From Rickettsiales bacterium (lineage in GTDB: Bacteria > Pseudomonadota > Alphaproteobacteria > Rickettsiales > Midichloriaceae), in the NCBI GenBank assembly GCA_044446225.1, contig JBIOER010000001.1:1-38037 (forward strand): DNA of 38,037 bases. The letters are read 5' to 3'. The notes under the pieces were generated by a model that was given only the letters and a program-made list of their open reading frames with translations, was not told the origin of the DNA and did not search any database. This document shows, one piece after another, positions 275 through 26,969 of the stretch. Both the position numbers and the translations under genes were made by a program. The first letter of the stretch is position 1. Every line of letters starts with the position of its first letter.

Positions 275-1120
275 TTGATGAAAATCAAGGTTGATTTTGA
301 AGGATTATATGATTGCTTAAAAGGAGAAGGACTTAAAGGTAACTTCAAAGAAGTAGTCAGAATGTTAAATGGCGTTCGTTCGTGGGGTCTAGACGACACT
401 GATGATTTCGATCAAAATGACTTTCTTTACATCAAGAAAATCCACGACCTCTCTTTTAATTTACTGTCTACCGTTGCCAGCGGTAACTGCAGCAAGAATG
501 AAACATTAACGCACTGGGAAATGACGTTTGCACTTGCGGTTAGCAAAACCTCACCCGTGCTGGATGAAAAAGCACTATTTGAAAGCGTGAACCACTGCAA
601 ATATGATTTGACGAGAAAAATTCTTAAACAACTTCCCCTCGATGGCAACCCAGCCATTAATGAGGTCTACACCATTTTGGAAGCGCGGATGAAAAAAATT
701 CGTCTTGCCCTATATATATTGGCAGTAGTTCCAAATGGAACAGCTCTAAGCAACAAGTTGTACGAGCATCTTGATAAAGTAGAAGCCGTGTTTAAAAACA
801 CGCATACAGAAGCGGTTAATTCATCGCCCACACAGGTTAGAACAACTTTTATTCCAAAAGAAAAAGTGCATTTTTCAAATGTAGTAACTGCCTCTATTTT
901 TTATGAGTCAGGTTTACCATTTAATATTACAGACAGTTTGCGCCCGGATATTTCCGAAATGCCGGCTCATCCTGGATACGTTTACACTTCAAGGTATCAT
1001 TGCACTAGTAATCAAATTATCAAAAGCGACCCCACGTTGTATAGTAGAGCTAACAAAAATTACTGGGTAGAAAAGGCCACTAAAAAACTTTTTGACGAAC
1101 TTCCCTTTCGAGAAATATAG
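275..1120 (+). CDS. Hypothetical protein (281 aa), no recognisable domain
   Basis: Long uninterrupted ORF. GAGGA lies 4-5 nt before the ATG at 278, so the TTG at 275 is probably not the real start. There is no signal peptide or TM segment, and I recognise no motif. Confidence 0.6.
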   Translation: MMKIKVDFEGLYDCLKGEGLKGNFKEVVRMLNGVRSWGLDDTDDFDQNDFLYIKKIHDLSFNLLSTVASGNCSKNETLTHWEMTFALAVSKTSPVLDEKALFESVNHCKYDLTRKILKQLPLDGNPAINEVYTILEARMKKIRLALYILAVVPNGTALSNKLYEHLDKVEAVFKNTHTEAVNSSPTQVRTTFIPKEKVHFSNVVTASIFYESGLPFNITDSLRPDISEMPAHPGYVYTSRYHCTSNQIIKSDPTLYSRANKNYWVEKATKKLFDELPFREI

Positions 1121-1367: not shown

Positions 1368-1649
1368 TCAGTTGATTTTATTCGCAGCGTGGAGCACCTG
1401 AAGGATCCCCGCTACAGCAGCATAGGCCTCAAAAGGAATGTAGTCGTCGACCTCAAGGATCGATAGAATTGCCGTCAGATCTTCGTCTTTAACAATTGAT
1501 ATGTTGTTTTTTTCAGCGATTTTGATGATTTGCTCAGCGACGGTCCCTTGCCCCTTAGCGGCGATTTTCGGCGCAGGGTTCTCCCGCTTATACTTAAGCG
1601 CCACCGCAATTATTTTTTTTAGCTTAACCTGCCGATCATTCACGTTCAT
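1368..1649 (-). CDS. Stand-alone FlhB C-terminal-domain-like protein (EscU/YscU/HrcU family, YlqH-like), 93 aa
   Basis: AVALKYKRENPAPKIAAKGQGTVAEQIIKIAEKNNISIVKDEDL matches the post-cleavage cytoplasmic domain of FlhB/YscU. The protein has no TM region and no NPTH site. Its start overlaps the iscX stop by 14 nt. Confidence 0.75.
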   Translation of the reverse strand: MNVNDRQVKLKKIIAVALKYKRENPAPKIAAKGQGTVAEQIIKIAEKNNISIVKDEDLTAILSILEVDDYIPFEAYAAVAGILQVLHAANKIN

Positions 1650-3004: not shown

Positions 3005-4231
3005 ATGGATAAAATATATAGCAAATTACTTACTCTAATCAAGCCAAAAAATTACAGCTTAAAGGATTACTTCTTTACCAGCGAGTCCGTTGCTGAAGGC
3101 CATCCAGACAAAGTGTGCGATCAAATATCGGACTTAATTCTTGATGAATATCTTGCCAATGATCCCACCGCCAGAGTAGCGGTAGAGACATTAGCTGCAC
3201 CCAATAACTTAGTCATTGCTGGGGAGATCAAGTCCGTCTATAAGCCCGAGGCAGGTAGGATCGAGCAGCTCGCGCGGGAACACGTCCAATCTTTGGGGTA
3301 CGACCAGAACCCCTTCCACTTTCAAAATATCAATATTCAAAATCTACTGCATGAACAGTCGCCTGAAATAGCTATGGGTGTAGATGGCAGCCATGGCAAA
3401 GAGGAGGGAGCCGGTGATCAAGGAATTATGTTTGGCTATGCTTGCCATGAAACCGAGGAGCTGATGCCCGCCCCAATTTTATACGCCCACCGGCTGATTA
3501 GAAGCCTAATGGAGGCCGTAAAAGCTAAAAAACTGGTTGGCTTAGGCCCGGATGGCAAATGTCAGATTACCTTGGAATATGGCGCTAATAAGCTGCCCTT
3601 TAGGGCCGATACGGTGGTAGTTTCAATTCAGCACTCTCCCCATATCTCTTTAGAAGAGGTGCGCGATATGATTACTCCCTATGTGCTGGAAGTACTCCCC
3701 AGCGGCTGGTTCACCGATGCGACCAAGCTCTATGTGAACCCCACAGGAGCGTTTACAATTGGCGGGCCAAATAGCGATACTGGGCTCACTGGCAGAAAAA
3801 TCATCGTTGATACTTACGGCGGTGCAGCTCCCCATGGCGGAGGAGCATTTTCTGGCAAAGACCCCTCCAAAGTAGATCGCTCCGCAGCTTACGCCGCGCG
3901 CTATATTGCCAAAAACATTGTTGCAGCAGGATTTGCCGACAAATGCCTAATTCAAATCTCTTATGCCATTGGCATGGCGCATCCCCTATCGATTTATGTC
4001 AACACTTTCCGCACTGCCATAGTTAAGGAAGAGCGCCTTGTTAAAGTGGTTTCCAAAGCAATGGACTTGACTCCCAGAGGGATTCGCAATCATTTAAAAC
4101 TCGACCGAGCCATCTATTTACCAACTGCGACCTACGGACATTTCGGCCGTCAACCCACCCCCAAAGGGCATTTTTCGTGGGAAAAAATCGACCTCATCGA
4201 CTCGATTAAGTCTTTGATTAGAACTGTGTAG
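3005..4231 (+). CDS. metK: S-adenosylmethionine synthetase
   Basis: FTSESVAEGHPDKVCDQISD, GAGDQGIMFGYA and GGGAFSGKDPSKVDRSAAY are all present. The protein has a roughly 20-aa N-terminal extension, and no Shine-Dalgarno sequence is visible before 3005. Confidence 0.96.
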   Translation: MDKIYSKLLTLIKPKNYSLKDYFFTSESVAEGHPDKVCDQISDLILDEYLANDPTARVAVETLAAPNNLVIAGEIKSVYKPEAGRIEQLAREHVQSLGYDQNPFHFQNINIQNLLHEQSPEIAMGVDGSHGKEEGAGDQGIMFGYACHETEELMPAPILYAHRLIRSLMEAVKAKKLVGLGPDGKCQITLEYGANKLPFRADTVVVSIQHSPHISLEEVRDMITPYVLEVLPSGWFTDATKLYVNPTGAFTIGGPNSDTGLTGRKIIVDTYGGAAPHGGGAFSGKDPSKVDRSAAYAARYIAKNIVAAGFADKCLIQISYAIGMAHPLSIYVNTFRTAIVKEERLVKVVSKAMDLTPRGIRNHLKLDRAIYLPTATYGHFGRQPTPKGHFSWEKIDLIDSIKSLIRTV

Positions 4232-4354
4232 TCGGCCTCTATAGAGCGATCCCGCAGTGGGATGTTTATAACTCTATATGACAATAATTTATTTTTTGCT
4301 GTTAATTATGTATTGATGTAGTTTGATTCCATATGATATGCAAGGGGGTGTTTA

Positions 4355-7300
4355 GTGGTCGTTGGCAAGTACGTTGAAGACAATAAAAATGAAAATATTG
4401 TTAAGCTAATAAAAAGTAGAATTGAAAATTTAAGACCTAAATTATTAGATCTTACGCGTCGCAACCCACTATTATCAGTTAAATATTCTGACAGATCCAA
4501 TTCTTACATAAGGGTTGTAGATGAGGTTCTGAGTGCTTTATTTGCTAGATTGAGCTCCGGAGAAATAAAAATTGTTCCTTTGCCGGCTCTAGAAGAAGAT
4601 CCAAAAGATGAATTATCGCGAGAATTTTTGGACGCCTTAGCAGAGGCAAGGCTTACTGATCTACTGTACTTAAAGGCGTTAGATGAAATTAATCAAGATG
4701 ACAAAGATTCAGCAAATTTATTATCCCTTACTGATCGCGGCTTGAAAGACCGGCTAAGAGAGCAGTTGACTATGCCACCTAGACAAACCAAAGCTAATAC
4801 TTCAGTACAGCAGCATGCTTTGAACCATAAAATCAACCCCAGTTATGATCTTTTAAAGATACCTGAGGGAGATCATCATAATGACGAAGAAATTCAAACA
4901 CTTTTGCTTCCTGATCTGCTGGAAAGAAGAGTTAATGCTCTGTACACCAAAGAGAAAACATGGGTAGATGAAACTGGAATTAGCGTTCTCCATGCAGCCT
5001 TTGGTTTCTTAGAGTGGCAAGAAAACAATACATCCCAACCATCTTACGCTCCACTTATTCTACTACCTGTTGTGTTAGAAAAAAAACGCTCTTCTTCTGG
5101 CCAAGTATTCTTATTAAATGGCAGTGAAGATGCCCCTCTGGGAAATACAGTTCTAGCTGAAAAATTGCGGCTTGAGTTTAATATTATCATTCCTGAATAT
5201 ACTTCTGAGCAGCCTATAGATGAATATTTAGAGTTAATAGCTAAGCAAATTCCCAAAAGCTTACCTTGGAAGGTGCGACCATGGGTAACAATAGGAGTAT
5301 TTCCTTCGGCTCGTTTAGCCATGTATTACGATTTAAATACAAAATTAAGCACTAGCTGGGATTTTGCTAGTCATCCAGTTATTTCAGCTCTGCTTGGAGG
5401 TTCTGAAACAGGAAACGATAACACCCCATTTGGAGATGAATATGAGGTAGACGACCCTGAAATTGAAGCCAAAGTTCCATTATTAGTGACCGATGCAGAT
5501 TCTTCTCAGTTTAGTGTTATTGCCGATATATCCGACGGCAAGAATTTAGCTGTTGAAGGCCCCCCTGGCACGGGTAAATCTCAAACAATTGTAAATACAA
5601 TAGCCGCCATGTTGGCTAAAGGTAAGAAAATTCTATTTGTAGCGGAAAAAGTAGCCGCTCTTGAAGTGGTTAGGACAAGACTTGAAGCGTTTAGCTTGGG
5701 GGAATATATTTTATCTTTGCAGGCGACACGCTCATCTAAAACTCAGGTTATAGCTTCAATTCGCGAACGCATAGAAATGGAGTCCTGTACAGAACCAAAG
5801 GAGTTAGAAAACAAAATTTCTCAATTTAAGAAAGCTCGCCAAGAGATTAAATCATATATTGATGTATTGAAAACGCCCTTTTTAGAGACAGGGCTTAACA
5901 CGTATCAAATTCTAGGCCGCAGCATTAACTTAAGAAAAAGTACCGATTCACTTCCTAACTCTCTAAAGAATTATAGTTTCTCAGACTTACAAATCATGAC
6001 TACAGCTAAAGTAGATGAAATTATTTCAATTTGCCAAAACCTTGAACAAGCTTGGTTAGACACCAAACAACATCCTGATTGGTGGAAGGGAATAACCGTT
6101 ACCAATTTAGCCCCATTTATAACATCTGACATATTAAAACAAGTAAATGAAGCTGCTATCACTTATACCAAATTAGTTGCTATTAGAGAGACGCTTCATG
6201 CGTTTGGGATTGATAAGGAAAAGCAGATAGAAAAATTAACAATATTTGGCTTAGGGATAAGTAGCCTGCTAGGTACTGTCAAAAGCAATCATGTGCCATT
6301 AGCGCTCACATGTAATTCTCAAGAGGTGATTAAACGAGTTCAATCATTTGTTGATGCAGCAAGTAAATTACAAGAGGAACGTGAGGAACTAGAAACGCAT
6401 ATTATAAATATATTTGAACCAGGTGTTTTAGAAAACGTTACTCGAATCACAGAACTTGTAGTTCGTTATAATATAGGCGATATAGCTGATGTAACTCTAG
6501 ACAAATTAATTGATGAAAGATTAGTCCATATTTCAAAGCTTACAGAGGCAATATCTTTTTTATATAGCGCATCATTTATTTCACCAGCTTTTCGTCAGCT
6601 GCCGATTAAAAGCATTCTTGCTGCCTGTGAATTAGTAAGAAAATTACCCAGAGACGCCCTAATGCTGCGAAGTAAAGAGTTAATGACTTCTGATTCTAAA
6701 ATCATCATAGAAAAAGCAAAAAAACGAACTGAGAATTTATGCTTACAACAAGCGAGTCTGATAAATAAATTTCAACTTACACCTCTACCCGATCAAAATC
6801 TATTGATGCACCACCTAGGTATACTTGCGAACTCAAATATATTTTCTTTCTTCACACCGAGTTATCATAAAGCTAAAAAATTTTATATCGGGCTCTCTAA
6901 GAACGTCACTTTTAACAAGGAGACTGCAATATCAGGGTTGAAGGAGTTCCATAAGTGGCTATCTGACACTAACGAATTATTCTCAGATAAAAACATGCTA
7001 AATATTCTTGGTTTGAGATTTAACAAATTAGAAACGAACTTTGAACCATATATCGAGCTATTTAATTATTTCGCTGAAATCGACCGAAGTTTTTCAGAAC
7101 TAGAAGCTATGCCTCTTAAAGAGTTTTTGCGTTTAGGTGATAATGATAGCCTGCTTTCACTGCCTCAACCCCCTATAGATCATCCTGTGAGATTATTCCA
7201 AAGCGATACTTTAGCATCTGTTGAAGAACAGCTTAGGAAATTCGAAGATGAGTTACTTCAGGTTAAAGCTGCTATAGAAGATATTAAAAAGGCAACTAAG

Positions 7301-9463
7301 CATTTCCATAAAAACGAAGGGTGGAACTCCGATAAGCTTCTGAAGATTTCTAACCAATTAGAAAAATTCCTAACTGAATATAATAAACACTCAACTGATC
7401 AGGAGTTAGAAAAGCTCAGTGGTATCAAATTTGATGAAGTACTTTCTAAAAAACGAGATATAGAGAATTCATTACAACTAGCCATTTTTGCCTTAGGATT
7501 AGATAAGGATTTGAAAAGTGCTCTGATACAGACTCTGCAACATGATGAACTTGATAAACTTACGTCTCTTTCAGATTCAATTATAGTCGTTGATACTGCA
7601 GCTAATGAGTCATTAGATAAAATAGCAATACTGACTGGACTAGATATTAAGACCTGGTTGCTTGGTACTCATGCCGAAAATGCACATCATCTTAGCCAAG
7701 CGGCAAATGACAAACAAGGACTTATATCTTATGCACGTTTAAATGGTTTAATAGGTGAGTTTTCTGAAAAAGGCCATATTCATTTTATAAAAGAACTTTT
7801 GGAAAATTATGATTTACCGATGGATGTATCCAACGCTTTTATGGCAGTATATACCCAAGCATTGGCACGCGAAGTATATAAGCAATTTAATGCTGTTTTG
7901 TCCAGGTTTGATGGGGTGAAGCTATCCTCTTTACGCAGACAACTTGCTGATCTAGACAAGCAAATAATTCATCTATCAAGAGAACGCTTGCGAGCACAGT
8001 TATACCACAGTGCAAACCCGCCCCGTGGCAAGGGTATTGGCAAGAAAAGTGAGCTTACAGAAATGGCGCTTCTAAAAAATGAAACTGCTAAAAAACAGCG
8101 CTACACTCCTGTAAGGGATCTAACGGAAAGAGCTGGTAAGTCCTTAATTGAATTAAAGCCTTGCTGGATGATGTCTCCATTAGCTGTCGCCCAATATATT
8201 CCTCAAGGAACAATTACATTTGATTTAGCAATAATTGATGAAGCTTCTCAGATGACACCAGAGAATGCAATTGGCGCGCTAATTCGTGCAAAACAAGTAA
8301 TGGTTGTGGGAGATACTAATCAGTTGCCACCTACTGATTTTTTTAGAAAAGTTTTAGAAGATGAGGAGGCGGATGAGGATGAGGCAGTTACGGAGGAGTC
8401 AATTCTTGAGATGGCTAATGCAACATTTAAACCCGCAAGAAGATTGCGCTGGCATTATCGCTCTCTTCACTCGGGCCTAATAGCTTTTTCAAACATGCAT
8501 GTTTATGAAAACGATTTGGTTATATTCCCTTCAGCATCTGAAAATCATTCTTACATGGGCGTTCACTACAAGCTTGTTGAGAATGGGCTCTACTCTTCTG
8601 GGACAAACCCAGTTGAAGCAAAAGCTATGGTTGATGCAGCTATAGATTTTATGATTAATCACTCAGACTTATCTTTGGGGATCGTAACCTTAAATCAAAA
8701 GCAAAGAGATTTACTACTAGATGAAATGAATTATGCGTTTGAGCATAATAGCCAGGCTGTAAAATACAAAGAGCGATGGGAGAGAGAAAAATATGGCTTA
8801 GAACCGTTTTTTATCAAGAATTTAGAAAACGTTCAAGGGGATGAGCGAGACGTTATATTTATTGGCACAGTTTATGGCGCGGAAAAACCAGGAGCTCCTG
8901 TGATGCAGAGATTTGGCCCAATAAATGGGGTCGCCGGCAAAAGAAGGTTAAATGTACTTTTCTCTAGAGCGAAAAGGCGCATAGTGACTTTTTCTTCGAT
9001 GCGGGCTACTGATATTAAAGCTGAGCAAGATAGCAATCCTGGCGTCTATATGCTGAAATGCTGGTTAGAGTATAGCGCTAGCAAAATGATAGAGAGGGGC
9101 ACTGCAATAGAGAGGGAGCCTGATTCTGATTTTGAGCGGCATGTGATTCAGCAGATTAAATCAATTGGCTTTGAGGCAATTCCTCAAATTGGTGTCTCAG
9201 GCTATTTTATTGATATAGGAGTCCGTCACCCTTCATGGCCTCATGGCTTTATTATGGGTGTTGAATGTGATGGGGCAGCATATCACTCATCCAAATCTGC
9301 TCGTGATAGAGACAGGTTGCGACAGGAAGTTCTAGAGGGACGCGGGTGGTATTTATACCGAATTTGGTCAACTGATTGGTTTGAAGATCCCGCACGAGAA
9401 ACACAAAAGCTTAAAAGAGTGATTGAAGAACGGTTGAAGCAGATGAAAATGCAGATTGGCTAA
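4355..9463 (+). CDS. Giant DUF4011-type Upf1-like SF1 helicase fused to a C-terminal Vsr/DUF559-like (REase) endonuclease domain, 1702 aa
   Basis: GTG start with AAGGGGG 6 nt upstream. The N-terminal RPKLLDLTRRNPLLS motif is DUF4011-like. Helicase motifs are Walker A GPPGTGKSQT (5558..), motif II IIDEASQM (8231..), VVGDTNQLPPT, VQGDERDVIFI and RRLNVLFSRAKRR. The C-terminus reads GVECDGAAYHSSKSARDRDRLRQEVLEGRGWYLYRIWSTDWF. Confidence 0.88.
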   Translation: MVVGKYVEDNKNENIVKLIKSRIENLRPKLLDLTRRNPLLSVKYSDRSNSYIRVVDEVLSALFARLSSGEIKIVPLPALEEDPKDELSREFLDALAEARLTDLLYLKALDEINQDDKDSANLLSLTDRGLKDRLREQLTMPPRQTKANTSVQQHALNHKINPSYDLLKIPEGDHHNDEEIQTLLLPDLLERRVNALYTKEKTWVDETGISVLHAAFGFLEWQENNTSQPSYAPLILLPVVLEKKRSSSGQVFLLNGSEDAPLGNTVLAEKLRLEFNIIIPEYTSEQPIDEYLELIAKQIPKSLPWKVRPWVTIGVFPSARLAMYYDLNTKLSTSWDFASHPVISALLGGSETGNDNTPFGDEYEVDDPEIEAKVPLLVTDADSSQFSVIADISDGKNLAVEGPPGTGKSQTIVNTIAAMLAKGKKILFVAEKVAALEVVRTRLEAFSLGEYILSLQATRSSKTQVIASIRERIEMESCTEPKELENKISQFKKARQEIKSYIDVLKTPFLETGLNTYQILGRSINLRKSTDSLPNSLKNYSFSDLQIMTTAKVDEIISICQNLEQAWLDTKQHPDWWKGITVTNLAPFITSDILKQVNEAAITYTKLVAIRETLHAFGIDKEKQIEKLTIFGLGISSLLGTVKSNHVPLALTCNSQEVIKRVQSFVDAASKLQEEREELETHIINIFEPGVLENVTRITELVVRYNIGDIADVTLDKLIDERLVHISKLTEAISFLYSASFISPAFRQLPIKSILAACELVRKLPRDALMLRSKELMTSDSKIIIEKAKKRTENLCLQQASLINKFQLTPLPDQNLLMHHLGILANSNIFSFFTPSYHKAKKFYIGLSKNVTFNKETAISGLKEFHKWLSDTNELFSDKNMLNILGLRFNKLETNFEPYIELFNYFAEIDRSFSELEAMPLKEFLRLGDNDSLLSLPQPPIDHPVRLFQSDTLASVEEQLRKFEDELLQVKAAIEDIKKATKHFHKNEGWNSDKLLKISNQLEKFLTEYNKHSTDQELEKLSGIKFDEVLSKKRDIENSLQLAIFALGLDKDLKSALIQTLQHDELDKLTSLSDSIIVVDTAANESLDKIAILTGLDIKTWLLGTHAENAHHLSQAANDKQGLISYARLNGLIGEFSEKGHIHFIKELLENYDLPMDVSNAFMAVYTQALAREVYKQFNAVLSRFDGVKLSSLRRQLADLDKQIIHLSRERLRAQLYHSANPPRGKGIGKKSELTEMALLKNETAKKQRYTPVRDLTERAGKSLIELKPCWMMSPLAVAQYIPQGTITFDLAIIDEASQMTPENAIGALIRAKQVMVVGDTNQLPPTDFFRKVLEDEEADEDEAVTEESILEMANATFKPARRLRWHYRSLHSGLIAFSNMHVYENDLVIFPSASENHSYMGVHYKLVENGLYSSGTNPVEAKAMVDAAIDFMINHSDLSLGIVTLNQKQRDLLLDEMNYAFEHNSQAVKYKERWEREKYGLEPFFIKNLENVQGDERDVIFIGTVYGAEKPGAPVMQRFGPINGVAGKRRLNVLFSRAKRRIVTFSSMRATDIKAEQDSNPGVYMLKCWLEYSASKMIERGTAIEREPDSDFERHVIQQIKSIGFEAIPQIGVSGYFIDIGVRHPSWPHGFIMGVECDGAAYHSSKSARDRDRLRQEVLEGRGWYLYRIWSTDWFEDPARETQKLKRVIEERLKQMKMQIG

Positions 9464-9576: not shown

Positions 9577-10368
9577 TCAACCAGCAAGCATAACCGCAGA
9601 CATTTGACAGCCGAATATCGCTTTCTTTTCATGCGTGCTTCTGCGGAAGCTGAAGTACTTTTCAGGCTGCGAATACGTGTCCTCACCTACGTCAGAAATG
9701 TTAAGCAATCCCGAAGTTGCAAGCCTTCGCGCGCAATAACCGGGAAGGTCAAACATGTAACGACCCTCATTGACTGAATCGATAAAAAGACTAGCGTTGG
9801 CAGGAGATTGGTCTAAAAACTGATCGCGAAAGTTTGCATCCACTTCGTATGATTTTTGGCCAATTGTTGGGCCAATCGTCGCGTGAATGTTCTTTTTGTC
9901 CGCTCCCAACACTACCATTGCCGCAATAGTATTTTCAATAATCCCGGCAATCGCTCCTTTCCAACCCGCATGGCACGCACCAATTACTTTGGCGTGATTG
10001 TCCTCAAATACTATCGGGCAACAGTCCCCTGTAATAACTCCCAGCACAATATTTGGTAAAGTTGTAACTAGACCATCAGCTTCTATTTCATCGGTTATCA
10101 TATCCGCCGCAGTAATATGCACCACCTTATTAGTGTGGTTTTGATCAAGGTGTTTTACTGGCAATCGCTGATCGCCAAAATGCGCGGCCACTATCCGTAA
10201 GTTTTGCTGGTAGTCTTCAAAATTATCGCCCAATCCTTTCTTTCTCATAAAGGCTAAACTTGCGTACTCACCTTTGCTCACGCCGCCATTTCTAGTAAAG
10301 AAGTTTTTCTTAATTTGCATATAAACCATTTTACCAGAGATTATACTATCTCTTCTTCTCATTTTCAA
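9577..10368 (-). CDS. pgeF: Peptidoglycan editing factor PgeF / YfiH (laccase-domain, DUF152) protein
   Basis: Motifs HTNKVVHIT, ADGLVT, GVITGDCCPIVF and GACHAGWKG are present. The real start is more likely the ATG at 10329 or 10320 (MVYMQIKK / MQIKK), which would avoid a 23-nt overlap with the upstream gene. Confidence 0.88.
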   Translation of the reverse strand: MKMRRRDSIISGKMVYMQIKKNFFTRNGGVSKGEYASLAFMRKKGLGDNFEDYQQNLRIVAAHFGDQRLPVKHLDQNHTNKVVHITAADMITDEIEADGLVTTLPNIVLGVITGDCCPIVFEDNHAKVIGACHAGWKGAIAGIIENTIAAMVVLGADKKNIHATIGPTIGQKSYEVDANFRDQFLDQSPANASLFIDSVNEGRYMFDLPGYCARRLATSGLLNISDVGEDTYSQPEKYFSFRRSTHEKKAIFGCQMSAVMLAG

Positions 10369-12631
10369 TCACAGCTTTTTTGGCCTCTTCTTCTAACTCT
10401 CTCTTCACTTTGTCAAGCTGTTGAAGCGCACTACCACTAGTGCTAATGTGCGACTCATCTCCCTCCATCATCGCGCTTCCTGCCTGAGCAATCCCTTGTG
10501 CAGTTTTAGTCACCGTATCCAGCCCAGATTTCTTCAACGCATCATAGCCAGTTCCAATAAAGTTCACCCGCTTCATCGCGGTCGCGAAACGTCCGCCAGA
10601 TGCATAATCTGCAGTGTGAGAACCTAAATCAGCGGCTGCAGATACCGTTCCTCTAGCCTGATATGCCGAATCAATTAAAGCTTTATACGCACCACTTGCC
10701 ATACCTGATACCGGCCTAAATTGCGATTTGCTTAACGCATCAATGATTGGTGGAATTTCCGTCATCACCATTTCAAAGATGAGGGAAACAATTAGAAATC
10801 CTACGACATTGGCAACATTTATCGTGCTTTCCAAAGCTCCTAAGTCGTACGGATACCAAAAATTAAAATCCCAAAAATTGAATACATTAGGGGCCGGTGC
10901 AAAGAATGAGAATATGTATTCCCAGCATACTTGGTAAGAGAATAGGTTTTCAATTTGATTTAATAGCAAAGTTACCATTAGCGCCAATAACGCATTGACG
11001 GATATAATCATCATACCGCTGGCAATTAACAGATTCATCCAATTCTCAAATAGTTTTTTGGTGAATTGGAAAAGTATCATAATGATAAATAGAGGAGCAA
11101 TCACAATCAGCAGCGCGAGCAACATAATTGATGTCAGGTAAATCAACAAAGCTCTTAACATCCCTAAGAAAATCAACCCCATACACACCCAAAAAATTGG
11201 TATGAGATAAAAATACTTTGTAAACAATAGCCCAATAACTTTGGCGTTGAGCTGAGTCGAAATTAACAGATTTAAAATCACATCAAATACCGCCAACGCA
11301 TTAGAATTCGGTGGCAATGCAAATAGTGGTGAATTAGGATCACCACCATAAAAAAGTGTGGCGTTAAGAATAACCGTTCCAATATACTGCGCTCCAGGAC
11401 CAACGAAACTAAAAAGGTACGTATTAAAAAAAGTAAAGCTGCTGGGCGATATCACTATTAGGACAATAGAAATTTTAAAGAGCCGAGTAATAAGCTCCCC
11501 TTGGGTAATATTTAGGTTACCCATCATAAACATAAGCGCAGTCATCACTATATATAGAAGCACTGTTGCTCTAACTATATTTATAAAACCAAACTGCTGA
11601 GTGATGTTCACATATAGAGCTTGCGTTACGCTTTCTAGCTGTGATTGGAAAGCCTCCACCGTACGTTCAATCATTCCCATTCCAGTATAGGAACCCGAGG
11701 TTATGGTAATATTATACCCTCCAGTATTATCTTGATAATACGAATCAAGGATTTTAAAATATAATATTCCCTGAGGCACATATGGCTGGCCAGACGCATC
11801 TGTATCCGTGATGCAAGTAAAGCCAGTTGCCCCAGCAGATTGGTCTACATAACATTGTTGGGTAGATGCTATTTGAGCAGAGCACGTCCCATCCGCGTTC
11901 TGTGTGAGAGGCACGTTAAATGTTCTAAAATCTATAGACGGTGGAAACATTGAGGTCTGTGCATTTGCGTTGGGGTCAGCAAACGTTCCATTGTTGTTTA
12001 GCGCAATTAATCCGTACAAACCGTATCCATTACAAGGATTTGAGCAAGCCGCACCTAGCTGAGCATTTGATGCGCAACCTGCTGAAATTTTACACGGAAG
12101 ATTGGTCAAATTAGTACCACCAACATTTAAAGTTAGCCCCTGACCGGACATACACGCCGAATTGTTCGCCAGAGGATCCGAGTTAGGTTGGCAAGCTTGA
12201 AATATACATTCTTTGTAGGAGCTAATTGAATCTGAAGTGGTAGTGCCGGAAGTCAACTGCTGTATACTAGACTCCGAAAAAATTTGTAAAGGCGCCCATG
12301 CACCGGAAACAGTAAGTGTTAGTACGTTTCGCAGTGGCGTGCAGTTTGTTGCACCACTTGGGCAAACCTGAGTTTGTCCGGCACCATAGGTATGGATATT
12401 GGTGTTCAGCCACTTTACTACCTGACTTTGAAAAGGGGTACTCTGCATTAAAGAATTTGTCGGCATCTGGTTCGGATTAGAACATACTGTGACCGATCCA
12501 ACATAGCCAAAAGCGTCTGACGCAATACAGTTATTTGAATCAGCTGGCGTACAGCTGGTTGGACTGACAGCGTAACTTACTACAGGCCAACTAGATAACA
12601 ATAGTACTAATAATATTTTCTTTAACATCAC
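10346..12631 (-). CDS. virB6: VirB6-like T4SS inner-membrane protein, paralog 5 (761 aa) with a roughly 340-aa N-terminal Cys-rich domain
   Basis: Last gene of the virB3-virB4 operon. Signal peptide MMLKKILLVLLLSSWPVVSYA. The polytopic hydrophobic block starts at IVRATVLLYIVMTALMF and contains FFNTYLFSF, which is shared with 12628..15390. The ATG at 12628 overlaps the upstream stop (TGATG). Confidence 0.72.
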   Translation of the reverse strand: MMLKKILLVLLLSSWPVVSYAVSPTSCTPADSNNCIASDAFGYVGSVTVCSNPNQMPTNSLMQSTPFQSQVVKWLNTNIHTYGAGQTQVCPSGATNCTPLRNVLTLTVSGAWAPLQIFSESSIQQLTSGTTTSDSISSYKECIFQACQPNSDPLANNSACMSGQGLTLNVGGTNLTNLPCKISAGCASNAQLGAACSNPCNGYGLYGLIALNNNGTFADPNANAQTSMFPPSIDFRTFNVPLTQNADGTCSAQIASTQQCYVDQSAGATGFTCITDTDASGQPYVPQGILYFKILDSYYQDNTGGYNITITSGSYTGMGMIERTVEAFQSQLESVTQALYVNITQQFGFINIVRATVLLYIVMTALMFMMGNLNITQGELITRLFKISIVLIVISPSSFTFFNTYLFSFVGPGAQYIGTVILNATLFYGGDPNSPLFALPPNSNALAVFDVILNLLISTQLNAKVIGLLFTKYFYLIPIFWVCMGLIFLGMLRALLIYLTSIMLLALLIVIAPLFIIMILFQFTKKLFENWMNLLIASGMMIISVNALLALMVTLLLNQIENLFSYQVCWEYIFSFFAPAPNVFNFWDFNFWYPYDLGALESTINVANVVGFLIVSLIFEMVMTEIPPIIDALSKSQFRPVSGMASGAYKALIDSAYQARGTVSAAADLGSHTADYASGGRFATAMKRVNFIGTGYDALKKSGLDTVTKTAQGIAQAGSAMMEGDESHISTSGSALQQLDKVKRELEEEAKKAVIENEKKR

Positions 12632-15390
12632 GGTTTCAGGTTCCTCGCTTTTCTCTTATCTTGTGCATTTTTCTCCCACTTACCTTCTGTCGCTTGAGAT
12701 ATAAACATAGAGTCTTTCATCGCCCGAGAATGCTGCTGGACCTCTTTGGATCTGCCAGTAACAAAGCCGGCGGTATCAGATAGTCCGGTTAGTGGTTTTG
12801 CATAGCTACTGATATTACCAAAAGCACCTAAGTCAACACCACTGTTAAACCCAAATCCAATCAGTTGGTTAGTAAGTGAAATCATAAACGGAACAAAAAC
12901 GTACATTGCTTGTGAAATAATCAAAAGATAGAAAACTGAAGCATAGGTGAATAATGGACCAACTATAGCTCCATCTGTCCCCACTGGCAAATGCAGTGAA
13001 TACAAAGTTTGGAACAGCGAGAGCACACATAAATTTATTATCGGTGGGACATATAGTTTTATATAGCACGCATTGCAAACAGTAAACCCTAATACTATTT
13101 CTAAGCCCAAGAGTAATAAAGACGCAAACATACCAACTGCCAAAACTATGAACACCGGTTGCAAAGCAACCGTAACCAATTGCTCGAGCCAACTAATAAA
13201 TAACTTGCGCGTATAATCAAACAACGCAAAAGAAATAAATATCGGCGCCAGCAACAATAAGAACCCCATAATAACTAGAGACATCGTGTAGATAAGCATC
13301 GCCTTGAATATCGTGTAAGCGTAGGTGACACCTGAAATAAATATCGCAATCGCGATAAAATACCCCATGTAAGTGGAAACGCAAAGCGCCAGGAGTTTTA
13401 TCCAAGTAACCTTTGAAAAGATCATTGTTAACGGCGCAGCAAAGACATTAAAGACCATATCCGGCGTAGCTAGAATTGCTGCTTCCTGAGTCGAACTAAC
13501 ATTAAACTGGGTGTAATTTACCATTTTGGCCATTAAATCCACCCCTCCTTGTATATAAAACGAGAATAAATAGGTGTTAAAAAATGCCCAACTATTGGGC
13601 GAAAGCAATGCTATGACTATACCAATAAAGAAGATTCTCTTTAAGCCATCTTTTTGTGTAATCTGTGCGATACCCATGACATAACTAAGACCGGTAAACG
13701 CAATGTATAAAGTCAAAAGCGCTCTTACTATTTTCATAAAGTTACTATCGGCAACCAGCGAATTAAACAAATTCTGTACCACTCCAGGATTAGTGCCACT
13801 ACCATAGAAATAAGTTCTTACCACGCCAATTTCTGTTGTAATTGGGGTAAATAAATTACTACCTTGTGCCGGGAGCTTTGTAACTTGGAGCGTATATGCA
13901 CCTCCTTGATTACCAATTCCATAGATATTTTTTACATTCGCCACACTTGAAGCGCAAATAGGATCAAGTGGGTTACATGTAGGCAGCACATTGCCAGGAG
14001 TAGTGAGCGGCGCATTAACCCTCATAAAAACTACGCCGGCACTTTGCGCCGTAACTTGAGCAACATTCTGTAACTGCTGGGTGCTTATGTCTATCCAATC
14101 GGAAGCTTTAGGAACAGCACCAGGAGCAGCAATTGCATATTGCAAAAATTCCCCATTATAATATGGGCATCCGTATCGAGTAATTGATACTATCGCCCCA
14201 CCTAAATTATCCGCCCAATTAGTTGCAGGACCAAGATCGTAATGGGTAATACCTAGTCGAGTAAAATTACTTGGCGCAAACCCATTTAATATCCCAGCGA
14301 ATGTAACACTTTTTTTACCAATCACATCACAAGTATTGGAAGGGTCATATTCAGTTGCAGCCGTTCCGTTCAAGCCATTCCACGTAATACTTGCATTAGC
14401 CGCTTGAGCTGCTTGAATAGTAACAACTGCGTCAGTGTTACAAACTGTTGTACCTTGAGAGTTTTTAAATGGAGATCCATTCACCTCAATGGTTGGAAAT
14501 TGCAATTGATCTCCCGGCAAATAAGACTGTGAATTATTATAGGATGAAAGATTACCCCAAATGCTATAATTAGCTGGGTAAATTATTAACCTGGGATCTT
14601 GAGTTCCGTAAGGTGGAGAAGATGGTATCGGAGTATATGGAGCGCTAATTAAATCCGTCACATAACTAATACTAAGAAAATCTCCATCTTTAACATCGAT
14701 ACTAGTATCAGTGGGCAAATAATTTCTCGCACTCCAAGACCCGCTACTAGAGTTCATCGCGTGCCATGAATTATTACCTGACCAAGCAGCGTTATTTTCA
14801 CCTGCAAAAACTGGATAGATAGTAACGCTATTATAGCCGCATGTATAAATAACTCCTTGACCTACCCCGCTAACGCTATTGCTACTAAAATTATTAAAGG
14901 TAAGCGAATCCCCTACTGCTACTGAAAGTGATGTCTCATAGGCATTATAAACAGCGGCTGATGAATTGGTGGGGTCTGTAGAGCATGCAATTTGTATCGG
15001 CCCTGGTGAATTAGCAGTTGTGACTGACCCACCTGAAGAACCTATATTAATGCTGCTTGGGTTGTAAAGCTGCCCCTGCTCACAAGCTCTGGTACAAGCC
15101 GAAATAATTGGCGCATTAAGTTCAAAACCCGCTGTTACTCCTGAAAGCCTAGAGTACTGTCCACACTCGTTGGTACAAATTTGCGTACACTGCTTACCTA
15201 CTGGACCAATGTTGAAACTATCTTGATCTAGATCCCCCAGCTGATAACCGTAAATGCATTCTGTATATAAGCCAATCGGAGAATACTGAGTGCCACCCGA
15301 TTGCGCTGCCGCTACCATTTGCGCTTGCGCTTGCGAAGCAAAAAACACCGCTAATACCAATACACCAGTGATAAGGATTTTCTTCATCAC
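12628..15390 (-). CDS. virB6: VirB6-like T4SS inner-membrane protein, paralog 4 (920 aa) with a roughly 550-aa N-terminal Cys-rich domain
   Basis: Signal peptide MMKKILITGVLVLAVFFASQAQA. The N-domain is paralogous to that of 23698..26775. The polytopic block runs IVRALLTLYIAFTGLSY...FFNTYLFSF... The start is coupled to the upstream stop (GGGGGTGATG). Confidence 0.75.
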   Translation of the reverse strand: MMKKILITGVLVLAVFFASQAQAQMVAAAQSGGTQYSPIGLYTECIYGYQLGDLDQDSFNIGPVGKQCTQICTNECGQYSRLSGVTAGFELNAPIISACTRACEQGQLYNPSSINIGSSGGSVTTANSPGPIQIACSTDPTNSSAAVYNAYETSLSVAVGDSLTFNNFSSNSVSGVGQGVIYTCGYNSVTIYPVFAGENNAAWSGNNSWHAMNSSSGSWSARNYLPTDTSIDVKDGDFLSISYVTDLISAPYTPIPSSPPYGTQDPRLIIYPANYSIWGNLSSYNNSQSYLPGDQLQFPTIEVNGSPFKNSQGTTVCNTDAVVTIQAAQAANASITWNGLNGTAATEYDPSNTCDVIGKKSVTFAGILNGFAPSNFTRLGITHYDLGPATNWADNLGGAIVSITRYGCPYYNGEFLQYAIAAPGAVPKASDWIDISTQQLQNVAQVTAQSAGVVFMRVNAPLTTPGNVLPTCNPLDPICASSVANVKNIYGIGNQGGAYTLQVTKLPAQGSNLFTPITTEIGVVRTYFYGSGTNPGVVQNLFNSLVADSNFMKIVRALLTLYIAFTGLSYVMGIAQITQKDGLKRIFFIGIVIALLSPNSWAFFNTYLFSFYIQGGVDLMAKMVNYTQFNVSSTQEAAILATPDMVFNVFAAPLTMIFSKVTWIKLLALCVSTYMGYFIAIAIFISGVTYAYTIFKAMLIYTMSLVIMGFLLLLAPIFISFALFDYTRKLFISWLEQLVTVALQPVFIVLAVGMFASLLLLGLEIVLGFTVCNACYIKLYVPPIINLCVLSLFQTLYSLHLPVGTDGAIVGPLFTYASVFYLLIISQAMYVFVPFMISLTNQLIGFGFNSGVDLGAFGNISSYAKPLTGLSDTAGFVTGRSKEVQQHSRAMKDSMFISQATEGKWEKNAQDKRKARNLKP

Positions 15391-18068
15391 CCCCTCACCA
15401 TATTAGCAGCAGCTTTACCTGCCGTAGCGGCAGCACTAGCGGCAGTACTAGCAGCCACTTTAGTAGCTGAAATCGCTGAAGATGCAGTAGCCGATGAGCC
15501 AGCACCCAACATGCCACCGAAGCTTGAACTAATATTTCCCAAATCTTTCACACCAACTAACTGCGACATAAACGTTATTATTTTATCTAAAAATAAGTAG
15601 AAAAGAAATGCAAACAACATTATCTGTAACATCGGCAGCCACAAGGCGTTTGCCGCCGTGTTGATTAAATAAGGCACTGAAAATAAGCCCCCTATGTCTA
15701 AATATGCTATAAAGCTAGTCGTTAAATTTGATACGGCAGTGGTACAAGGATTGACAAAATTTGTGCCACCTACGCTATACAATGATGAAACGGTGCAAAA
15801 CATTGAATTGCTGCCTTGGCATATGGTCGACAATTGGTTAAGCGCCCCAGTATCGTTAAGCTTGAGACTCGAAAGGCTCATACTGCCATAGTAAATAGCA
15901 TCAAATGTTGAAAGCATCAGCGTAATAAAAGCAAAAAGTAGTCCTGGCAATAGTATATATCCCAGCAACATTCTACACCACTCATTAAACATTTGCTTGG
16001 TCGGTTCAAATAACCAGAGAACAAAAAATATTGGCGATATAAAGACCATTATAGTAATTGCAAACAACACCAGGATAAACACATTGGTATATCTAAAGAA
16101 AGTGATCAAGATAAACATCGTGTAAATTATACAACAAACTCCAAAAATTATCCCTGTACCTCCGCTCCATAAAGACGCCAGGGGCATCCAAATGGCAAAC
16201 ATGCCGGTAATAGAAAAATTACAAGTACCAAAATTCAAATAGTTGGCAATTTTACAATCAATTAAATCCCATACCGTTACCAGTATATTAGTGTTAGGTG
16301 TTCCTATAGTTACGGTTGGCACCAGCGGTGAAGCTGCCGGGATTTGTTGATCGGTAAAGATATTGGCATTGTTATATTCATACTGACAGAATTGGAATGG
16401 ATCGTTAATGTTTTGCGCTTGCACAAACAGACTGACAATTTCTTGGCTTGCTGCAATTAATGCTGGATACATACCCGATGGCTGCCCTGCGACTGTGTTA
16501 TACCATGCGTTGCCAAGCGTGAAGTAACTTACGATACCAAACTTAACTGCATACATTATCCATTCGTGGCGTTTTGGCGGCTCAGCCGAAGTAATAATTT
16601 TCATCCCTACTAACGCTATGTATAGTGTAAGCGCGGCTAAAATAGCTTGCTTTAAATTCTGCTGAATATTTTCAAAGAAGGTGGTGGTTTGACCAGTCAT
16701 CGGTTGCATGAAAATTTTGTTTAGCATGTCTTCAATGCACCCGACGATGGTTGAAGTGAAATGCATGTCACTTAACAAAAACTTTACAACTGGAGCATTG
16801 GGCGATTTAAAAGAATTACCCAGCGATGCTAAATCTGTTCGCGGCTGTGTAATATATATACAACGCGTATTTTGCACAAATGCTAATAAGAATGGATCAA
16901 TAGCTACTATACTTGTTGGAGCAGCAACTGTGGTGCAACCTAAGAGTACTGGAAGCAATGTAAATGGTTGCGCAGCACACAATTGAATTTGTCCATTCGC
17001 AGGATCTTGCCGGTAATAAGCATAAGCATCTATCGCCCCCCAAGGACCATTGGCATGCACATATTCGCCGGGATATAGAGTGATATCGGCATACCTATTA
17101 AACTCACACGTCTTCGGTGCCGTCGGATAAGCACTACTTATCTGGAGATTAGTTAAGATTGAACCTATAAACTGCGTTCCGGCGAGCATATCCCTTAGAT
17201 ATTGCGACATATACCCTATTTCAATCGTCGCGACATTACACTCCAAATAGCCCTGTAAGCCCGTAGCCGTACTCCCGCACCAGCCTTGGCTAGCATTATT
17301 ACCTGTAGTGCTTGCCGCACCAGGATTACTTGTCGCCTGAGTGGCAGCGAGCGCAACCATATTCTGGCATGGCTCAGTATTAGCTCCCATATAGCCCCAA
17401 GTATAACCGAAATATGAACTTGTTTGATCAACTTCTGCTCCCCACCACCCACTAGTTTGATAAGTGGGATCCCAACCTGGATCGCAGTGGAAAATCCATG
17501 GCACAGTATTACTGGTCAGTACATTGGTATTAAGGTTGCAAGTTGAATTAGACAAGGTTCCGTAGGTTAAGGTGCCATTAGAATTACAGCACGCTGATCC
17601 ATCCCCTTGTATATACCCCAAATATTTACTGACGCGCTCTGCGGCCGTATAGGCAAAAGCACCGCTGCAATAATCTACCATTGTTGCATATTCAGCAGCA
17701 GCATAAACCACTGCACCAATACCAAATGTAAATGCTCCGATTAAACCAGCTGCCATCGCATTATCAATTTGAACCAATACAATCTCAGGCACCAACATAC
17801 CTGTGTAGTTAACGTTGGCGTTAGCTCCTTTTCCTAACGTTGGTGGAATACTGGTGTTATTAAAGTCTAGGTAGTTGGCAATTTTGCCCGTAGTAAAACA
17901 GTTGTCGTAACCGCTATTGGTGCCCAAATGATTTTGCTCATATTGCAACAGCGAATTCGTAGATCCTGTGGAAGTTGCCGCATCAGAGTTATTAGCGTAA
18001 GCAAACAACAGGCAAATCCCTACTACCAGATAAACAAAAGGATATTTCTGTTTATACGCTTGCTTCAC
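15387..18068 (-). CDS. virB6: VirB6-like T4SS inner-membrane protein, paralog 3 (893 aa)
   Basis: Full-length paralog of 18068..20926 (YEQNHLG..YDNCF, AEYATMVDYCSGAFAYTAAERV, PPKRHEWIMYAVKF, LWLFEPTKQMFNEW). It has a signal peptide, a polytopic C-terminal half and an Ala/Ser-rich tail. The GTG start overlaps the upstream TAG by 1 nt, after GGAGGAAGG. Confidence 0.75.
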   Translation of the reverse strand: MKQAYKQKYPFVYLVVGICLLFAYANNSDAATSTGSTNSLLQYEQNHLGTNSGYDNCFTTGKIANYLDFNNTSIPPTLGKGANANVNYTGMLVPEIVLVQIDNAMAAGLIGAFTFGIGAVVYAAAEYATMVDYCSGAFAYTAAERVSKYLGYIQGDGSACCNSNGTLTYGTLSNSTCNLNTNVLTSNTVPWIFHCDPGWDPTYQTSGWWGAEVDQTSSYFGYTWGYMGANTEPCQNMVALAATQATSNPGAASTTGNNASQGWCGSTATGLQGYLECNVATIEIGYMSQYLRDMLAGTQFIGSILTNLQISSAYPTAPKTCEFNRYADITLYPGEYVHANGPWGAIDAYAYYRQDPANGQIQLCAAQPFTLLPVLLGCTTVAAPTSIVAIDPFLLAFVQNTRCIYITQPRTDLASLGNSFKSPNAPVVKFLLSDMHFTSTIVGCIEDMLNKIFMQPMTGQTTTFFENIQQNLKQAILAALTLYIALVGMKIITSAEPPKRHEWIMYAVKFGIVSYFTLGNAWYNTVAGQPSGMYPALIAASQEIVSLFVQAQNINDPFQFCQYEYNNANIFTDQQIPAASPLVPTVTIGTPNTNILVTVWDLIDCKIANYLNFGTCNFSITGMFAIWMPLASLWSGGTGIIFGVCCIIYTMFILITFFRYTNVFILVLFAITIMVFISPIFFVLWLFEPTKQMFNEWCRMLLGYILLPGLLFAFITLMLSTFDAIYYGSMSLSSLKLNDTGALNQLSTICQGSNSMFCTVSSLYSVGGTNFVNPCTTAVSNLTTSFIAYLDIGGLFSVPYLINTAANALWLPMLQIMLFAFLFYLFLDKIITFMSQLVGVKDLGNISSSFGGMLGAGSSATASSAISATKVAASTAASAAATAGKAAANMVRG

Positions 18069-23340: not shown

Positions 23341-23346
23341 TTATAC

Positions 23347-23640
23347 CTAATAGGGGTCATATGAGTTAGCCCCGTGAAATATTTTATTAGCCGATCTATT
23401 GCACAGCTGATTTCTAATCATAAACAACTCTATAAACAGCGGTTCTTTTGAGCAAAGATAATATCCAAAAAAATGGATTGGAACCCCTAGAGCAAGATAT
23501 GAGAATTTACTCGTCATAATATAGGCAATAAAGCATGCCATGGTATTGATCATGAAATAAGGCATACTAACCCCAAATAACAACGCTGGCCTTGTCAACC
23601 CTACGAATAATGGATCAGCTCCTACTTGTCCTTCTGCCAT
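23347..23640 (-). CDS. virB3: Type IV secretion protein VirB3
   Basis: 97 aa with DPLFVGLTRPALLFGVSMPYFMINTMACFIAY, followed by a second TM segment. GGAG lies 7 nt before the ATG. The gene sits immediately upstream of virB4. Confidence 0.9.
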   Translation of the reverse strand: MAEGQVGADPLFVGLTRPALLFGVSMPYFMINTMACFIAYIMTSKFSYLALGVPIHFFGYYLCSKEPLFIELFMIRNQLCNRSANKIFHGANSYDPY

Positions 23641-23697
23641 ATTTTATCTCCTGCCTTTAAAGTTTATATCTAGCATATTATATTCCACAAGCTTTAA

Positions 23698-26775: not shown

Positions 26776-26878
26776 AGTACTTTGAAAAGTTATGGTTATG
26801 AGATTAAATTGTATTGCCTAAATTACAACGACTTTCCTAGTGGTATGTAATAATTTAGTTATTTTCACTTAAGGGAAT

Positions 26879-26969
26879 GAGACTGACTAAAACCCGCCTG
26901 AATTCGTTGTGGCTGCTTCCTTTCGAACCTGACCAATTTGGCAAACTAGAAACGCCTTCAGCCAATCTC
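26879..26969 (-). ncRNA. ffs: Signal recognition particle RNA (4.5S RNA, small bacterial type)
   Basis: The minus strand reads GGUCAGGUUCGAAAGGAAGCAGCCAC. This matches the conserved domain IV of E. coli 4.5S (GGUCAGGUCCGGAAGGAAGCAGCCAA), with a GNRA tetraloop closed by UUC/GGA. The 5' GAGAUUGGCUGA pairs with the 3' UUAGUCAGUCUC (12 bp, 3 G-U pairs). Confidence 0.85.

Follow-up and report, generated by a model that had tools for sequence, protein, structure and literature searches.

The window analysed here, a stretch of 38,037 nucleotides (nt) from a Rickettsiales bacterium of the Midichloriaceae (assembly GCA_044446225.1, contig JBIOER010000001.1, positions 1 to 38,037 of the forward strand), encodes between metK and pgeF a protein of 1702 amino acids (aa) in which a DUF4011 domain, a Upf1-like helicase of superfamily 1B (SF1B) and a C-terminal Vsr-like nuclease are fused. 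Judged by its sequence, this protein is a member of the Hhe-like DUF4011/SF1B/MTES_1575 superfamily and not an equivalog of Hhe itself. We think it probable that the gene is a stand-alone, horizontally acquired defence helicase-nuclease of this superfamily, acting by the mechanism proposed below. A preliminary description of the window had already taken the gene for a candidate defence or foreign gene, and the idea gains support from the nearest named families, which are anti-phage proteins, and from the corresponding sites in relatives, which are empty.

The open reading frame (ORF; 4355..9463, plus strand) is complete: it starts with GTG and runs as a single open frame without frameshift or internal stop. 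A TAG read in frame at 4352-4354 abuts the GTG and sets the 5' limit of the ORF, and a Shine-Dalgarno-like AAGGGGG can be read at 4342..4348 (plus strand), 6 nt before the start; together they support the GTG start and make the gene a separate cistron. It stands alone on short spacers, as had been described, 123 nt from metK (3005..4231, plus strand; TIGR01034, 489 bits) and 113 nt from the convergent pgeF (9577..10368, minus strand; TIGR00726, 173 bits). Promoter and terminator scans gave counts no higher than those of shuffled controls. The single-gene layout has metK and pgeF as neighbours here, the neighbours of homologues vary from locus to locus, and comparison of the window with the homologue loci found no conserved partner gene beside the ORF or its homologues; the protein probably acts alone.

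The order of domains along the protein is clear from profile searches and motifs (all on the plus strand). The DUF4011 domain occupies residues 29-271 (4439..5167; Pfam PF13195, E=2.9e-31, profile positions 1-158 in full) and includes LLDLTRRNPLLS at residues 30-41. The first part of RecA1 follows at residues 385-461 (5507..5737), with Walker A/motif I GPPGTGKSQT (402-411), motif Ia FVAEK (428-432) and Pfam matches to AAA_19/AAA_30 at 385-444. An all-alpha-helical insertion of about 760 aa, seen in the AlphaFold2 model, then separates motif Ia from motif II (residues ~462-1219; 5738..8011), and RecA1 resumes at residues ~1236-1340 (8060..8374), as delimited by the strands of the model, by AAA_11 (1288-1327), by IIDEASQM (1293-1300), which contains motif II DEASQ (1295-1299), and by VVGDTNQLPPT (1317-1327), which contains motif III GDTNQLPP (1319-1326). 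RecA2 (residues 1348-1546; 8396..8992; AAA_12) holds VQGDERDVIFI (1493-1503), with motif V QGDERD at 1494-1499, and RRLNVLFSRAKRR (1530-1542), with motif VI RRLNVLFSR at 1530-1538. The nuclease, of the MTES_1575 or Vsr-DUF559-like PD-(D/E)xK type, closes the protein at residues 1593-1689 (9131..9421; PF18741, E=7.5e-35, 95 of 96 profile positions), and its motif comprises ECDG (1637-1640), H1644, RDRDR (1650-1654), GW (1664-1665), W1671 and DW (1674-1675). The single-gene fusion of DUF4011, Upf1-like SF1 helicase and Vsr/DUF559-like nuclease that the preliminary description had read by eye is thus borne out by Pfam, with all the motifs that it quoted present. Among the domains that it named, DUF4011, AAA_11, AAA_12 and MTES_1575 were matched, the last at the E-value just given, and DUF3320 was absent from the 1702-aa protein in Pfam searches, though longer homologues carry it.

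Residue conservation was taken from an alignment of 33 sequences, the window protein and its homologues. In DUF4011, the invariant columns are L31, D32, N37, R53-V55-D56, E206, G217-F218 and W221. In the helicase they cover G402-T411 of motif I, F428 and A430-K432 of motif Ia, D1295, E1296, S1298 and Q1299 of motif II, G1319, D1320, Q1323, L1324 and P1326 of motif III, Q1494-D1499 of motif V, and R1530-L1535 and R1538 of motif VI. The nuclease adds D1620, E1637-G1640, Y1643-S1645, R1650-R1654, W1665, W1671 and D1674-W1675, so the loss of nuclease residues that had been named as a ground for doubt is not what the alignment reveals. The 1702-aa protein has thus kept every helicase motif and its nuclease residues intact. 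The helical insertion is the least conserved stretch of the gene, with a mostly unconserved consensus.

Structure predictions agree with this division and add to the class assignment. The AlphaFold2 model of residues 386-1585 has a mean predicted local distance difference test score (pLDDT) of 82.6 and a predicted TM-score (pTM) of 0.44, which leaves the packing of the domains uncertain. The long alpha-helices that interrupt RecA1 have pLDDT values mostly of 80-90. Upf1-like helicases have an accessory domain, 1C, between motifs Ia and II, the site of the large insertion here. The best matches of the helicase core in the PDB (Foldseek) are Dna2, Senataxin/Sen1, Upf1 and IGHMBP2 (E 6e-10 to 1e-7; 6e-10 to 1e-6 for the set that includes Aquarius and nsp13 as well), and these matches confirm the SF1B/Upf1-like class. 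All of them span 290-500 residues, with query-normalised TM-scores of at most 0.21, and are Upf1-like helicase cores; none of the PDB matches covers the helical insertion, and a search with the whole protein returned weak matches to IGHMBP2 and Sen1 only. Dna2, Senataxin/Sen1, Upf1 and IGHMBP2 have the RecA1/RecA2 core in common with the window protein, and Dna2 is likewise a fusion of nuclease and helicase. However, they are 13-22% identical to it, lack DUF4011 and the Vsr-like domain, and have no counterpart of the insertion of some 760 aa, and Dna2 has its nuclease, which belongs to a different type, at the N-terminus.

The two ends of the protein gave less in fold searches. The nuclease domain alone had no match in the PDB, and its profile found there only a marginal match to RAP-domain proteins (E=0.03), a similarity that probably explains why Legionella homologues are named 'RAP domain-containing protein' in UniRef. 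Residues 1-385 were modelled with a mean pLDDT of 82.9 as an alpha/beta domain folded over about residues 9-350. Searched against the PDB, this DUF4011 model matched nothing significantly, the top matches being the PD-(D/E)xK enzymes BbvCI (E=0.085) and EndoMS (E=0.39). Within it, residues 186-315 (nt ~4910-5299) form an alpha-beta-beta-beta-alpha-beta core with the invariant E206 at the end of a helix, and a semi-conserved E-K-K is found at residues 242-244. The non-significant fold matches to BbvCI and EndoMS are a hint, and no finding, that the protein may have in DUF4011 a second, degenerate domain of nuclease-like fold. Its role here is, we infer, that of a sensor or regulatory domain.

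The protein finds its nearest named relative in Hhe. The gene hhe (HheA) is said to have been introduced by Gao et al. in 2020 as a single-gene anti-phage system; its models are NF042953 in NCBIfam, PDLC02194 in PADLOC and Gao_Hhe in DefenseFinder. The NCBIfam model 'DUF4011 domain-containing anti-phage protein Hhe' matches residues 144-1698 with 1146 bits. In Hhe, as here, one gene encodes DUF4011, then an SF1 helicase that a long insertion interrupts and, at the C-terminus, a Vsr/MTES_1575 nuclease, and the helicase of a Klebsiella Hhe annotated by the Prokaryotic Genome Annotation Pipeline (PGAP) is split in the same manner, its Walker A lying at about residue 440 and its motif II at about 1385. 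The two proteins are colinear in BLASTP, with 47% identity over residues 1163-1679 (C-terminal part of the helicase and nuclease), whereas the N-terminal ~1000 residues (aligned from residue 12 to about 880) are just 27% identical and the overall identity is 31-34%. They also share the nuclease motif IECDGxxYHS, in which E1637 of the window protein (GVECDG) aligns with E1727 of the Klebsiella Hhe (GIECDG); from the numbering and this alignment, we infer that E1731 of the Escherichia coli Hhe is the glutamate of the ECDG motif. The architecture, in which a Upf1-like helicase is followed at the C-terminus by a Vsr-type nuclease, is already described as Hhe, and the gene represents no new kind of system. 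The preliminary description had implied that the type of the nuclease and its C-terminal position were novel, which fails on this comparison.

That description had taken its comparison from Nhi and Mokosh, which share with the window protein Upf1-like/COG1112-type SF1 helicase motifs and a role in defence, but lack DUF4011 and have another type of nuclease and, in Mokosh, other partners. The matches to MkoA (80 bits) and MkoC (71 bits) are local and confined to the helicase motifs, and no Nhi model is among the PADLOC matches; Hhe is the right comparison. The top PADLOC model is PDC-S37, a single-gene phage-defence candidate, with 1085 bits, ahead of the PADLOC Hhe model (779 bits). The match spans part of the 1550-position profile, in three stretches, and canonical Hhe scores higher on the same model (1266 bits), so the score of the window protein probably reflects similarity within the superfamily rather than membership; two of its clade-mates (P0006 and P0029) reach 1021-1057 bits. 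ProA (NCBIfam NF058533) is similar over the full length (945 bits over residues 13-1698), but its profile has about 340 additional N-terminal positions. A literature search found nothing on PDC-S37 and nothing usable on ProA, whose source publication could not be traced.

The neighbour-joining tree of the 33 sequences places the window protein on a long branch within a clade of 'short forms' of about 1700 aa that end right after the nuclease, with the Klebsiella Hhe as a distant outgroup. Members of the family differ in a modular way in what comes after the nuclease, as read from the homologues P0021, P0022, P0069, P0039, P0053 and P0058. Proteins of ~1700 aa have nothing there, those of ~1830 aa a GreA/GreB-C-like domain and those of ~2010-2080 aa this domain plus DUF3320, while at ~1840 aa the tail can be accompanied by a zinc finger of the topoisomerase type (PF01396).

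The position of the gene argues for an acquisition in this lineage. A scan of GTDB species representatives with MetK found relatives at most 60% identical and without shared synteny, which is uninformative for the locus. Closer relatives came from a larger protein collection, as contigs (L088, L089 and L093) of two relatives with fragmentary assemblies. In L089 (MetK 81% and ObgE 87% identical), the divergent obgE-metK pair is kept and is followed by phaC; in L088 (MetK 83%, ObgE 94%), metK is followed by lpxC; and in L093, from the same sample as L089 (SRR23086385; VirB4 90%, PgeF 69%), the order virB4, three virB6 and pgeF is kept and is followed by SH3, coaD and mnmG. None of these contigs has a Hhe-like gene at the place in question, so that the search for orthologues at the same locus, which could have spoken for an ancestral gene, found the closest relatives without it both beside metK and beside pgeF. 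The obgE-metK and virB4-virB6-pgeF blocks, which end in metK and pgeF, lie on separate contigs in the relative from SRR23086385 and abut in the window, with the Hhe-like gene as the sole gene between them. That the blocks abut with the gene in between, and that the gene is absent at both sites in the relatives, is positional evidence for a lineage-specific acquisition at a rearrangement junction.

The argument from base composition is a weak one. The gene has the lowest GC content and the lowest GC at third codon positions (GC3) of the 22 genes of the window (0.382 and 0.304; z = -2.1 and -2.35), the remaining genes averaging 0.431 and 0.416. The by-eye impression that it is richer in A+T than metK (GC 0.478, GC3 0.494) and pgeF (0.436 and 0.424) therefore stands in part: the difference is real and modest, it is inflated by metK, the gene of highest GC in the window, and at equal length codon usage is no outlier. 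The apparent codon-usage outlier (whole-gene chi2/df of 4.89) was rejected as an artefact of length, the value being 1.52 at 250 codons. On the whole, the composition is compatible with a foreign origin, of which it is no proof. The most A+T-rich part of the gene is the helical insertion (GC 0.35), and this enrichment, strongest where conservation is poor, together with a branch at least as long as the neighbouring ones in the family tree, could be read as the mark of a decaying, non-functional remnant. We regard such decay as very improbable, because the gene keeps 1702 uninterrupted codons in DNA of 38% GC, its catalytic motifs are all invariant, and both AlphaFold2 models are confident.

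The gene family is accessory and mobile in its distribution. Among 5.8 billion proteins searched, the best matches are 45-50% identical and scattered over unrelated lineages, and no homologue exceeds about 50% identity; the closest homologues are found in Legionella quinlivanii, L. steelei, Marinamargulisbacteria, a plasmid of Candidatus Megaera polyxenophila, Candidatus Jettenia, Terasakiella and Bradyrhizobium. A search with the DUF4011 domain (E<=1e-3) retrieved 5443 sequences, each representing a 50%-identity cluster. The 150 best of these nearly all have the domain at the N-terminus or close to it, and most are proteins of 1.7-2.0 thousand residues; many of the shorter matches may be clipped at contig ends. 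Searched with tblastn, 494 plasmid records hold a relative, most of them Klebsiella plasmids whose gene is named hhe by PGAP; on the conjugative plasmid pKP048, the Klebsiella hhe adjoins a type I restriction-modification system and two DUF262 genes. The homologue on the plasmid of Megaera (Rickettsiaceae; 48% identity) is near genes for RecT, a Tad2-like protein, a YafQ toxin, reverse transcriptases and a transposase, and the Legionella homologue is among transposase, RelB, Gp49/HTH_37 and DUF927 genes. The Megaera homologue also makes the idea of an unusual cargo for a compact, endosymbiont-like genome seem overstated, and genes for chemotaxis, Kdp and PhaC in the relatives of the window speak against an extreme reduction of the lineage. 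The family is not typical phage cargo, since a phage collection contained three partial matches only. Among these are type-3 prophages of Liberibacter (KY661963.1 and PQ160474.1), with split 'DNA helicase-like' genes that match query residues 1162-1686, the C-terminal part of the helicase plus the nuclease, with 34% identity.

Such surroundings raise the question of whose interest the gene serves. It might be cargo of a mobile element that has since eroded, and might work for the element itself, by excluding rival plasmids, phages or integrative and conjugative elements or by addiction, and it might be a recent arrival that is unselected here. Some homologues adjoin genes that suit this reading: an excisionase-like HTH_17 gene, a DUF3631 or DUF927 primase-associated gene, or, on the Megaera plasmid, the RecT, reverse-transcriptase and transposase genes. 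The lowest GC3 of the window and the place at a rearrangement junction fit it as well. Yet no integrase, tRNA, flanking repeat or other gene of an element is left in the window, and a 5.1-kb ORF with all motifs intact speaks for ongoing selection. We judge it unlikely that the gene is such cargo, while the mechanism would overlap with that of a defence gene in any case. As to the HTH_17 gene, which is excisionase/AlpA-like and 64 aa long, it overlaps the start of the homologue in a metagenome-assembled genome of Marinamargulisbacteria (L086, 387-581) and in a Logan contig (L091, 307-501); it could be a regulator or the marker of an integrative element, and the window has no gene of this kind. 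One homologue stands directly after the DUF3631 gene.

How a defence helicase-nuclease of this kind might work can be proposed from its parts and from the studies of E. coli hhe. The Upf1-like motor, together with DUF4011 and the helical insertion of about 760 aa, would monitor nucleic acid or an abnormal state of DNA metabolism or replication caused by an invader, be it a phage or another mobile element. Translocation driven by ATP, or a conformational change, would then license the C-terminal Vsr-like endonuclease to cut DNA, and the cutting would stop the invader from replicating and might be abortive for the infected cell. E. coli hhe protects against the phages lambda, T3, T7 and PhiV-1, and its nuclease-site mutant E1731A loses defence (10.1101/2022.06.16.496414). 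Several class II DNA-metabolism genes of T7 and g40 of Bas63 act like triggers of it, the latter being toxic only in cells with hhe, and it is countered by phage NAD+-synthesis genes and gp130 (10.1101/2024.10.10.617714); the phage protein ORF65 inhibits it (10.1101/2024.04.14.589459). The multi-gene pattern of triggers reported for hhe (10.1101/2024.10.10.617714) has a parallel in Hachiman HamAB, where a helicase sensor governs a nuclease effector and is activated by a change in the state of the DNA and by no specific phage protein (PMC12278908). This is an analogy only, with no claim of homology, for HamAB consists of two proteins, with an unrelated SF2 helicase and another nuclease.

Several observations weigh against the interpretation of the gene as an acquired defence helicase-nuclease. 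First, its kinship with the named families is distant. The 1146 bits on the Hhe model miss the equivalog cut-off of 2000 bits, where the PGAP-named Hhe reaches 2735 and the clade-mates of the window protein 1120-1280, and the ProA cut-off of 1500 bits is missed as well; besides, with 1702 as against 1911 aa, the protein is without the post-nuclease tail of about 130 residues of Hhe. Second, experimental data on defence in the superfamily come from E. coli hhe only, which lies outside the short-form clade, and for hhe itself a link to the depletion of NAD+ or adenine has been suggested, rather than simple DNA cleavage (10.1101/2024.10.10.617714). Third, the signs of acquisition are incomplete. 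The window contains no tRNA, no integrase or transposase and, around the gene, no direct or inverted repeats beyond 12-17-mers at chance level; length-normalised codon usage (1.52) is within the range of host genes (metK 2.06), which makes the composition signal weak; and, the assemblies of the relatives being fragmentary, a relative may have lost the gene or may carry it at another place in its genome. Neither is the gene part of a defence island, an option that we rejected, as its neighbours are housekeeping and type IV secretion system (T4SS) genes and the sole other PADLOC match is 25 kb away. Finally, a large DUF4011 gene is core and conserved in Pseudomonas aeruginosa (10.1101/2022.11.11.516204), and family membership alone is thus no proof of a role in defence.

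The case of P. aeruginosa is at the same time an argument for a housekeeping function, in which the protein would act on the cell's own DNA or RNA in repair, in the processing of recombination intermediates or of R-loops. The structural neighbours of the helicase core, Dna2, Senataxin/Sen1, Upf1 and IGHMBP2, serve cellular nucleic-acid metabolism, Vsr is a true repair enzyme among the Vsr-like nucleases, and the gene, which has a good ribosome-binding site, is surrounded by housekeeping genes. A gene of genome maintenance would, on the other hand, hardly be expected to be missing at the corresponding sites in the closest relatives, to be without a homologue above about 50% identity in so large a collection, to have homologues in mobile and toxin-antitoxin islands and on plasmids, and to have anti-phage proteins as its nearest named families. 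This makes a housekeeping role improbable, and we retain the acquired defence gene as the better account.

The right-hand neighbourhood offers another reading. An rvh-type T4SS block (10346-26775, minus strand), with virB3, virB4 and five large VirB6/TrbL paralogues, follows pgeF; this gene arrangement is typical of Rickettsiales. Its members on the minus strand are a VirB6/TrbL-like gene of 1024 aa (23698-26775), a virB3-like ORF of 97 aa (23347-23640), virB4 of 804 aa (20923-23340) and four further tandem VirB6-like paralogues of 951, 892, 919 and 760 aa, within 10346-26775. In L093, three VirB6 paralogues come after virB4, and the paralogues are 46-51% identical between the genomes, as against 90% for VirB4. 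The Hhe-like gene is 0.9 kb from the last of the five virB6 paralogues, its class of Upf1-like helicases is largely eukaryotic, its nuclease profile has the marginal match to eukaryotic RAP-domain proteins (E=0.03), and its closest relatives are in protist-associated bacteria, e.g., Legionella and Megaera. From these elements one could construct a substrate of the adjacent secretion system that acts on nucleic acids of the eukaryotic host. We hold this to be extremely improbable: the family abounds in free-living bacteria and on enterobacterial plasmids, the place next to the T4SS is not a conserved one, as pgeF of L093 is not followed by such a gene, and the Legionella homologue resides in an island of transposase and toxin-antitoxin genes. 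A related and more general thought concerns the short-form clade as a whole, which could be a functionally distinct branch shared among protist-dwelling bacteria, not classically anti-phage, and in a Rickettsiales-like cell policing incoming conjugative or T4SS-borne DNA or, more speculatively, exported by the adjacent rvh system to act on host nucleic acids. The clade unites the window gene, the Legionella genes and the gene on the Megaera plasmid, plus members from other, unrelated lineages, and we give this thought only a slight chance.

Taken as an acquired defence gene, the ORF is a divergent member of a known family in an uncommon host; it is no new system and opens no new question by itself. 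It extends the short list of defence-type genes in Rickettsiales-like bacteria by a divergent and intact Hhe-like gene, and its place exactly at the junction of two otherwise conserved blocks makes it a clean example of lineage-specific gain. It belongs, moreover, to a superfamily whose 50%-identity clusters number in the thousands and in which experimental testing is confined to E. coli hhe.

Other features of the window can be described briefly. The sole other match to the defence library among the window proteins tested is an HD/HD_assoc gene of the dGTP-triphosphohydrolase type (34934-36088, minus strand; PADLOC 'dGTPase', 359 bits), which may simply be a dgt with a housekeeping role. The bacterial small signal recognition particle RNA is found at 26875-26966 (minus strand), between the T4SS block and trpS; it scores 40.1 bits with Rfam RF00169, for which the gathering score is 40. 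An ORF of 281 aa (275-1120, plus strand) had no match in Pfam, NCBIfam or PADLOC. At 1368-1649 (minus strand), an ORF of 93 aa corresponds to the C-terminal part of FlhB/YscU only (Bac_export_2 profile positions 261-334); either a remnant or an FlhB-C-like protein that stands alone could account for it.

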